The notes: generated from the letters alone by a model not told the origin. A DNA stretch of 64,000 nt from an uncultured Clostridiaceae bacterium (GCA_946998225.1 CAMPYH010000001.1:388094-452093); one strand, 5' to 3'. Numbered from the stretch's first letter, positions 4,312 through 5,535 are shown. Made by a program: numbers and translations.

Positions 4312-4908
4312 ATGTCAGTGGAAGAAAAAGAAACTAAAAAAATAGAAAAAAACGAAGAAGGAAAAAGCAAATTAGGTGTATTTAAAATTTTATATAATAT
4401 AATATATTATTTATTATATTTTGTGGTTTTTATCGTGATTATAATATCATTAGTACAAAGATTTAGTGATAACAAAAAATCACTTGGTGGTATAAGGATT
4501 TTTAATGTACTAACAGGAAGTATGGAGCCAAATTATCATGTGGGAGATATACTTTTTGTTAAAGATATAAAGCCATCTCAAATTAATATCGGTGATGATA
4601 TTTCCTATATAGGAAAGAAAACAGAATTTGATGGAATAGTAGTAACACATAGGGTTAAAGAAAAAGAAGTAAGAAAAGATAAAATATATTTTGTAACACA
4701 AGGTACAGCAAATCCATTACCAGATCCAGAAATATCTGAAGAACAGGTATATGGAAAGGTAATATATAAATCTGTAATATTATCTTTGTTTTCTCAACTT
4801 ATGAATAAAACAAGTGTTTTCTTTGTAATATTCTTGGCTATGGTATTTATCATAGCATTTAGATTAGTAGAAAAAAGAAGAAGTCTAGAAGAAAGTGAAG
4901 AGGAATAG
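4312..4908 (+). CDS. sipW: SipW-type (S26B, ER/archaeal-type) signal peptidase I, paralog 1
   Basis: N-terminal TM, catalytic Ser box LTGSMEPNYHVGDILFVK, His box VVTHRV, C-terminal TM and acidic tail. This is the SipW architecture. Confidence 0.8.
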   Translation: MSVEEKETKKIEKNEEGKSKLGVFKILYNIIYYLLYFVVFIVIIISLVQRFSDNKKSLGGIRIFNVLTGSMEPNYHVGDILFVKDIKPSQINIGDDISYIGKKTEFDGIVVTHRVKEKEVRKDKIYFVTQGTANPLPDPEISEEQVYGKVIYKSVILSLFSQLMNKTSVFFVIFLAMVFIIAFRLVEKRRSLEESEEE

Positions 4909-4926
4909 AAAATAAAAGAGGAACAA

Positions 4927-5535
4927 ATTAAAAACAAAAAAACTAAAACTAAAATTAAAGTTATAGATGTTCTTAAAAAAATAAAACTAAGACATTTTTT
5001 AGTTTTATTCCTTTTAATTGTAGCAAATACTTATGCTTGGTTTATTTATGCCACAAAAGTAAATGTTGGAATTACAGCACATATAGTTGCATGGGACGTA
5101 ACATTTAGTACAGCAGATGAAACTGCACAAACAAATACTTTAATTGAAGTTAAAAGATTGTATCCAGGAATGAAAGATTGCGTTCATATATTAAATATAT
5201 TAAACAAAGGTGAAAAAGAAGCAAAAATTTCTGTAAGTTTAAAAAGGGTAAAAATATTAGATAAAGAATTTAGAGTTTCAGACGATGTAACTAGTGACGA
5301 TTTAAAAGCTATATTAGCTAAATACCCATTTAATGTAAAAAATGAAATAAGTCATGATATATTAGATCCGCAAAAAGAACAATTTTTAAGAACGACAATA
5401 AGCTGGCCATATGAATCTGGCGATGATGAAAAAGATACAAAAATAGGTAAAGATGCATATGAATACTATAAACGTTATCCGGGAAGAAATGCGGTAGAAA
5501 TTGAATATGTAATAACAGCGGCACAAACACAATAA
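4927..5535 (+). CDS. TasA/camelysin-like secreted protein with SipW-cognate signal peptide (non-canonical start, possibly ATT)
   Basis: Frame 1 is open from the sipW TAG (4906-4908) through 5535. The region 4927-5157 encodes KNKKTKTKIK…FLVLFLLIVANTYAWFIYATKVN, a typical SipW-cognate signal, but contains no in-frame ATG/GTG/TTG. RBS AAAGAGG lies 5 nt upstream of ATT at 4927. The ORF track begins only at TTG 5158. The C-terminus …EIEYVITAAQTQ is TasA-like. Confidence 0.5.
   Translation: MKNKKTKTKIKVIDVLKKIKLRHFLVLFLLIVANTYAWFIYATKVNVGITAHIVAWDVTFSTADETAQTNTLIEVKRLYPGMKDCVHILNILNKGEKEAKISVSLKRVKILDKEFRVSDDVTSDDLKAILAKYPFNVKNEISHDILDPQKEQFLRTTISWPYESGDDEKDTKIGKDAYEYYKRYPGRNAVEIEYVITAAQTQ

Follow-up and report, generated by a model that had tools for sequence, protein, structure and literature searches.

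Several described systems are close to the locus reported here. Genes that begin with AUU or AUA behind a strong Shine–Dalgarno (SD) sequence are known from Escherichia coli (infC and pcnB) and from Staphylococcus aureus (cvfC1 with AUU, ccpN and infC with AUA; PMC13009471). Relative to AUG, AUU and AUA starts give 0.1-3% in E. coli (10.1101/063800), and in S. aureus, with an extended SD, they give ~10% and up to 30% (PMC13009471). Slippage or -1 frameshifting on runs of A has been described for Thermus dnaX, IS3-family elements and the poly(A) tracts of endosymbionts (PMC5009743), and for the Firmicute element IS1447 (PMC6211511). Archaeal-type signal peptidase genes stand beside the genes of secreted matrix or fibre proteins in the tapA-sipW-tasA operon of Bacillus subtilis and the sipW-bsaA operon of Clostridium perfringens (PMC7395162, PMC11580942); in the literature we found, startless or fused substrates were not described for these operons. 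The locus reported here lies in a 64,000-nucleotide stretch of DNA from an uncultured Clostridiaceae bacterium (CAMPYH010000001.1:388094-452093), and we call this whole stretch the window. In it, a sipW-type signal peptidase gene ends with TAG, and the same frame runs on as an open reading frame (ORF) that encodes a complete secretion signal without a canonical start codon ahead of it. Judged by its variation among samples of the same species, the ORF at 4909-5535 is most likely a live gene under purifying selection and not a decaying pseudogene. We favour expression from a near-cognate start codon, ATT 4927 or ATA 4912, as the explanation, and give it about an even chance of being correct.

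The reading frame behind sipW

The sipW-type gene (4312-4908, plus strand) encodes an archaeal/endoplasmic-reticulum-type signal peptidase I of 198 amino acids (aa) that ends in an acidic tail (EEE). Its product scores 90.9 bits with TIGR02228 (archaeal-type signal peptidase I), for which the cut-off is 51.85. With NF046067, the equivalog model for Bacillus SipW, it scores 54.8, under the cut-off of 190, and it is therefore not the equivalog of B. subtilis SipW. Among the SipW homologues, a group of 323-471 aa (P0224, P0233 and P0236-P0251) has long K/E-rich N-terminal extensions. The stop codon of the gene is TAG at 4906-4908. TAG ends 11 of the 42 plus-strand genes in the window, and it is therefore a working stop here; the other 31 genes end with TAA and none with TGA. 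TGA seems to be unused in this organism, as it occurs in frame in 0 of 17,933 codons of the window against 1,060 occurrences out of frame, and Trp is always encoded by TGG.

Behind the TAG, the same frame is open for 627 nt (4909-5535) and closes with TAA at 5533-5535. No in-frame ATG, GTG or TTG occurs before TTG 5158. On both points, the sequence bears out the original prediction, which had been made from this DNA without database searches. The startless lead of the ORF amounts to 83 codons, whereas all other plus-strand genes of the window have 0-27. From approximately 10% stops per codon in DNA of 25% GC, we estimate the probability of 83 open codons by chance at ~1e-4. On sequence grounds, the lead is more than a chance opening, and it also shares homology with real signal peptides.

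Two near-cognate codons could serve as the start. An SD-like AAAGAGG (4915-4921) lies 5 nt upstream of an in-frame ATT (4927-4929), as had been noted before, and its motif and spacing are the same as those of the SDs ahead of sipW (4312) and ahead of three other genes, which begin at 25614, 28855 and 30324. The ATT is followed by AAA and lies 18 nt past the sipW stop, in an A-rich region. From this proposed main start, the coding sequence (4927-5535, plus strand) would specify a secreted protein of 202 aa. The alternative is an in-frame ATA (4912-4914), which would be served by GAAGAGG (4897-4903), an SD-like site within the last sipW codons, 8 nt before it. The first canonical start, TTG 5158, comes 77 codons past the ATT and is followed by ATG 5170 (5158-5172 for the two); at these codons, gene callers place truncated proteins of 125 and 121 aa. 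In the public collection, the species is represented only by the 121-aa call from ATG 5170 (P0001).

The startless stretch (4909-5157) covers a spacer, a K-rich n-region (KNKKTKTKIK...), a hydrophobic core, an NTYAWF motif and the first strands of the protein. It encodes KNKKTKTKIKVIDVLKKIKLRH-FLVLFLLIVA-NTYAWFIYATKV and aligns with the N-terminal ends of over 100 Met-initiated homologues. The core (FLVLFLLIVA) and NTYA are encoded at 4996-5037, and NTYA is invariant or nearly so in the family. By analogy with the T-x-A / x-F site of TasA-type substrates, SipW is predicted to cleave after Ala37, between 5037 and 5038. The signal had been described as a textbook SipW-cognate signal that resembles the signal of the gene at 7334-8320. 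The resemblance is real: a profile comparison aligns 26 columns with a probability of 78%, and the TYAWF motif is present. The signal of the 7334 gene itself reaches TIGR04088 at threshold (19.2 versus a cut-off of 19), but TIGR04088 gave no match to the ORF at E <= 0.01, nor to any of 47 family members at E <= 1. The textbook label is therefore a matter of motif resemblance only.

The ORF family comprises 127 homologues at E <= 1e-3, which are approximately 200 aa long, uncharacterised, and share the conserved motif WPYESGDDE.DT.WG..AYEYY. The family has no match in Pfam or NCBIfam, and its profile found none of the PDB sequences. In an AlphaFold2 model of the ORF protein (pLDDT 87), a long helix at the N-terminus leads into a beta sandwich of ~8 strands and two helices. 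A Foldseek search of the PDB with this model gave no significant match, and TasA was not among the results. The gene had been called TasA-like, but the protein has no sequence or fold similarity to TasA or camelysin (Peptidase_M73); as far as the sequence tells, the name describes its context next to sipW and its T-Y-A-W-F signal motif, not homology. A product translated from TTG 5158 would miss the signal and the strands E53-60 and E66-75 predicted in the model, which supports the earlier view that it would presumably be non-functional.

The locus was recovered from 14 further metagenome contigs of independent samples (L001-L010, L049-L051 and L069), so that, with the window, 15 samples of the species could be compared. 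All 15 carry the TAG, no canonical start, the same A7 runs, and zero indels over 1224 nt. A sequencing artefact, one of the options considered originally, is ruled out by this agreement. A scan of metagenome DNA by the junction pattern added one contig only (L069), which again had TAG and ATT. The codon at 4927 is ATT in 13 samples and ACT in two (L009 and L010). In these two, which come from one study, the change at 4928 (ATT to ACT) is linked to a synonymous one at 4935 (AAC to AAT); GAAGAGG at 4897-4903 is unchanged.

The strains vary at 39 sites across the 1224 nt. In sipW, 10 differences are synonymous and 15 nonsynonymous, giving a ratio of nonsynonymous to synonymous polymorphism (pN/pS) of 0.41. 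In the ORF, the numbers are 11 and 4, and pN/pS is 0.10 (binomial p = 2e-5), which is equal to or lower than the values of the neighbouring genes (0.10-0.23). Twelve of the 15 ORF changes fall on codon position 3 of the frame, and the same changes read in the two other frames give pN/pS values of 2.6 and 0.6. The startless stretch alone (4909-5157) has three synonymous changes and one nonsynonymous. The contrast between the ORF frame and the other two disfavours a pseudogene, which had been the other half of the artefact option. As the startless state is common to all samples, selection acted after the start was lost, unless recombination imported older variation. Selection during the startless state, in turn, implies that the ORF frame is translated. 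Separately, three nonsynonymous differences (V>I, T>S and D>E) are clustered at 5287-5298 between the window strain and all 13 other strains compared; this cluster may be a small recombination patch.

The junction in other species

We compared the junction with 39 loci of other species, taken from 38 species-representative genomes and the contig of the closest homologue. A canonical start is found upstream of the signal motif in 37 of the 39, and in many of them it is preceded by an SD; in several (for example L012, L014 and L017), an SD is weak or missing in the upstream sequences inspected. In neighbour-joining trees, both proteins of the closest other species (L068, 42% identity) are sisters of those of the window. 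Its sipW ends with ...EEIEEE-TAA, which is followed by 21 nt that include AAAGGGA and then by ATG, in the same frame as sipW and with no stop between. This ATG and ATT 4927 of the window are at equivalent positions relative to the sipW stop and the SD; the comparison rests on layout, as an alignment of the junction DNA is unreliable in low-complexity A-rich sequence. Because L068 has the layout of the window with an ATG, loss of the start by an ATG-to-ATT change (G to T) in the ancestor of the window species would be the simplest history. The original prediction had regarded a normal ATG in orthologues as evidence against the startless arrangement. Such an ATG is present across species, in this 42%-identical orthologue, and absent within the species.

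An in-frame layout is not enriched among the relatives: the two genes share a frame in 12 of the 39 loci (contiguously in 7), which is the chance level, and we rejected family-wide selection for this layout on these counts. At six loci (L012, L014-L017 and L019; ~3890-4050), the end of sipW and the beginning of the substrate gene share 20-60 nt in different frames, and the SD is often weak or absent. This overlap suggests translational coupling, and an easy frameshift route to a fusion. Two truncated homologues of 177 aa (P0085 and P0087) were considered as further startless cases and rejected as assembly artefacts: the junction is chimeric in L052, and in L053 an N gap precedes a normal ATG.

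A different state of the junction is seen in L011 and L013, where the substrate gene has neither a canonical start nor an SD. There, sipW ends with GTG AAA AAA AAA AAT TAA (L011) or AGT AAA AAA AAA AAT TAA (L013), and both sequences contain a run of 11 A residues (A11; 3975-3985 in L011 and 3906-3916 in L013). The substrate ORF runs on in the -1 frame from inside this run. Two further samples of the L011 species (L066 and L067) have the same A11 junction. In the A11 species, the ratio of nonsynonymous to synonymous divergence (dN/dS) of the substrate parts is 0.10-0.22, the same as for the sipW parts. From its sequence, the junction is a candidate site of slippage during transcription or of -1 frameshifting, and the conceptual trans-frame peptide of the two species reads ...EDVKKKKLNRFK.

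A search with an alignment of three conceptual fusions returned 14 protein clusters of 391-462 aa that span both halves. Checked on the DNA with translation table 11, true single-ORF fusions of 391-444 aa were confirmed for P0136 (15 contigs), P0145 (11 contigs, including an 80-kb JGI contig) and P0138 (2 contigs). The fusion contigs include L054-L065 and L070, with the gene at, for example, 4001-5176 in L054, 4001-5239 in L062 and 3001-4335 in L070. In P0136, the junction is an in-frame A11, and both alternative frames meet a stop within 0-3 codons. The fusion loci are syntenic with the window: the DUF2357 gene is followed by the fusion, a minus-strand gene of ~195 aa and further genes, of ~250 aa, ~325 aa, a small ORF and ~510 aa. 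When 1.84 billion representatives were searched exhaustively by profile, the two halves occurred together in only two 50%-identity clusters, and the fusion is therefore confined to one clade. In neighbour-joining trees, L011 and L013 nest inside this clade, and the window and L068 lie outside it. As the trees of both halves group the window with L068, outside the fusion clade, we do not favour a broken fusion as the origin of the window locus.

In the AlphaFold2 model of P0136, helices span 9-39, 154-187 and 209-235, with the peptidase domain and a disordered K-rich linker between them and the beta sandwich behind; the domain arrangement is uncertain (pTM 0.48). The model is compatible with an in-out-in-out topology, in which the C-terminus of SipW and the K-rich linker would be cytoplasmic, and the signal peptide would form an outward third helix. 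No description of SipW-substrate fusions was found in the literature searched. A set of 407-aa "SipW-Q-ORF" proteins in the 90% SipW cluster (P0130, P0131 and P0133; ...ESEEE-Q-KIKEEQ...) was considered as possible CAG alleles of the window junction and rejected. Their contigs (L049-L051) carry TAG, and the genes on them do not translate to the stored 407-aa proteins. These entries are gene-caller artefacts on short contigs, presumably made with a table that reads TAG as Gln.

Routes of expression

According to the near-cognate reading, which we consider about an even call, the ORF would have lost its ATG in the ancestor of the species and would now be translated weakly from a near-cognate codon. 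The main start would be ATT 4927, served by AAAGAGG, with ATA 4912 and its GAAGAGG as a back-up. Because the sipW stop is only 18 nt upstream of the ATT, ribosomes that end sipW would probably re-initiate there (the biology of re-initiation is described in PMC2268962), and the amount of the secreted protein would be a small, fixed fraction of that of SipW. The precursor (KNKKTKTKIK..., FLVLFLLIVA, NTYA/WF) would then insert in the membrane and be cut by SipW. From the features of the locus we infer which codon is the start, that translation is coupled to sipW, that expression is low, and where SipW cleaves.

Initiation at ATT or ATA had been one of the options named at the outset, and it is the best supported of them. 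The ORF has a good SD at the usual distance ahead of a near-cognate codon and no canonical start for the complete protein, and the SD and ATG of L068 are laid out in the same way. In bacteria, natural UAG readthrough usually falls far short of near-cognate initiation. No RNA structure above shuffled controls was found around the junction (z = -0.26).

Several observations weigh against initiation at the ATT. L009 and L010, which have ACT at 4927, keep an intact ORF. The ATT is therefore not the sole route of expression, unless this lineage has lost the protein. In these strains, translation could start at ATA 4912 behind its SD-like site, the protein could be lost, or readthrough could matter. 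AAAGAGG is also frequent inside K/E-rich coding DNA: the window has 25 copies against 15 expected, and just about a quarter of the 25 precede gene starts. Finally, the frame is continuous with sipW, and functional fusions of the same pair exist in a related clade, so a readthrough product would be usable.

Readthrough of TAG 4906, programmed or tolerated, is the strongest rival to near-cognate initiation, although we consider it unlikely. It would yield a 407-aa polyprotein of SipW, linker, signal and domain, which SipW would cut in cis or in trans. No stop separates the TAG from the ORF, and the next in-frame stop comes after 208 codons, whereas behind every other TAG stop in the window it comes after 0-18. 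The downstream frame has the signature of coding sequence (pN/pS 0.10) behind a TAG that is conserved in all 15 samples, and the ACT variant at 4927 would be harmless. The acidic tail of SipW and the true single-ORF fusions, which have the same order and synteny in three subclades, are points in its favour, and the topology with which the P0136 model is compatible would suit such a polyprotein. The fusions make readthrough more plausible than it had appeared when first proposed; the stimulatory context that a programmed event would call for is missing, as no RNA structure was found near the stop, and the in-frame layout is at the chance level among the 39 loci. The fusion clade includes neither the window nor L068, the gene of L068 starts from an SD and ATG of its own, and TAG is an ordinary stop in the window. 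A broader version would treat the sipW boundary as a recoding site that doses a minor secreted subunit as a peptidase-substrate polyprotein, by TAG readthrough in the window, by A11 slippage in L011 and L013, and by permanent fusion in the sister clade. The signal peptide of the substrate would then be a third membrane helix of SipW, and the enzyme would free its own passenger. We regard this view as doubtful.

It is improbable that the gene was silenced recently, that is, that the ATG was lost and the ORF is untranslated but has not yet accumulated damage. A silent remnant would fit the missing canonical start, the additional loss of the ATT in one lineage, the 121-aa fragment that is all gene callers yield, and the presence of a weakly similar secreted-protein gene next to it on the other strand (5608-6234). 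The 15 differences in the ORF argue against it, with their 11:4 bias to synonymous changes and no indel or stop in 15 startless samples, as do the A7 runs, which are untouched.

The options other than near-cognate initiation, readthrough and a silent remnant carry little weight even when taken together. Very unlikely is a start at TTG 5158 or ATG 5170, which would produce a protein of 121-125 aa that has no signal and stays in the cytoplasm. No canonical start comes earlier, and the 121-aa call stands in public collections (P0001 and P0121-P0123), but neither codon has an SD, the signal and the first two strands of the predicted sandwich would be missing from the product, and the 83 codons ahead of them show homology to the N-termini of the whole family and vary synonymously. 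Least probable is a start at the out-of-frame ATG 4967 with a slip (-1 ribosomal, or +1 A transcriptional) on the A7 run at 4975-4981 to give MFLKKIKLRH... and the rest of the ORF; the run (4967-4981 with the ATG; A AAA AAA TAA, invariant in all strains) is a classical slippery heptamer with a 0-frame stop directly behind it, the product would carry a short but valid signal peptide, and related species join frames at an A run, but we rejected it as a main route for want of an SD upstream, and A7 is short for transcriptional slippage, no stimulatory structure was found, and the K-rich n-region 5' of 4967 is conserved in homologues and varies by only one synonymous change and one I-to-T change.

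Gene neighbourhood and comparison with known systems

The window has a GC content of ~25%, nearly all of its genes lie on the plus strand, and no tRNA gene, a suppressor tRNA included, was found within the 64 kb. Upstream of sipW are genes for a sortase-family protein (1281-1934), an SH3-domain protein (1949-2947) and a DUF2357 protein (3175-4284), the last of which adjoins sipW in all related loci. The cluster around sipW also holds genes for a 545-aa protein and a 2802-aa repeat protein (within 8654-18736). Convergent with the ORF is a gene for a 208-aa secreted protein (5608-6234, minus strand). Its product has a weak profile match of 37 columns to the ORF family, in the W...PG region, and may be a remote paralogue.

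The proposed product of the ORF is a secreted protein of ~200 aa, and its uncharacterised family occurs together with SipW in many gut Clostridia. Gene callers either shorten the gene to a signal-less 121 aa or, by reading TAG as Gln, make a false 407-aa fusion, which matters for annotation. As a speculation, the protein could be a low-abundance part of whatever the operon builds and not a major subunit, because it is made 1:1 with the enzyme in the fused species and by inefficient routes in the other unusual species. Four states of the junction are now seen: separate genes with an SD and ATG, a start lost behind an in-frame stop, frames joined by A11, and a true fusion. The series is suited to asking how a dedicated peptidase and its substrate are dosed, and whether the peptidase can process a substrate attached to its own C-terminus. 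Readthrough or slippage, if true, would add an example of cellular recoding in Firmicutes outside mobile elements.

A non-AUG start, which is the most likely reading, would be of a kind already known, and the fusions and A11 junctions of the relatives are undescribed in the literature searched. The ORF is like the AUU and AUA genes of the infC type in that a good SD stands at the usual distance ahead of a near-cognate codon, and attenuated translation would be expected from both. It is unlike them in that its start is deduced from sequence, in that the nearest relative has an ATG and one strain lineage an ACT, and in that the site lies 18 nt behind an in-frame upstream stop, so that coupling or readthrough may contribute. 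With tapA-sipW-tasA and sipW-bsaA, the locus shares an archaeal-type peptidase gene beside secreted-protein genes and substrate signals with an aromatic residue after the cleavage site. It differs from them in its gene order and partners (DUF2357, sortase and the 2802-aa protein), and no kinship of the ORF family with TasA or camelysin could be detected in sequence or fold. The comparison with recoding on A runs applies to the relatives: in L011 and L013, a startless ORF continues in the -1 frame from A11 and is under purifying selection, whereas the junction of the window is an in-frame TAG, and the product predicted for the relatives is a peptidase-substrate fusion, a kind not described in the literature found. 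The A1 protein of phage Q-beta is an extension made by stop-codon readthrough. The window resembles such extensions in its long, selected coding sequence behind an in-frame stop, and it is unlike them in that a stimulatory context was not found and the downstream part has its own SD-like site and the history of a separate gene.

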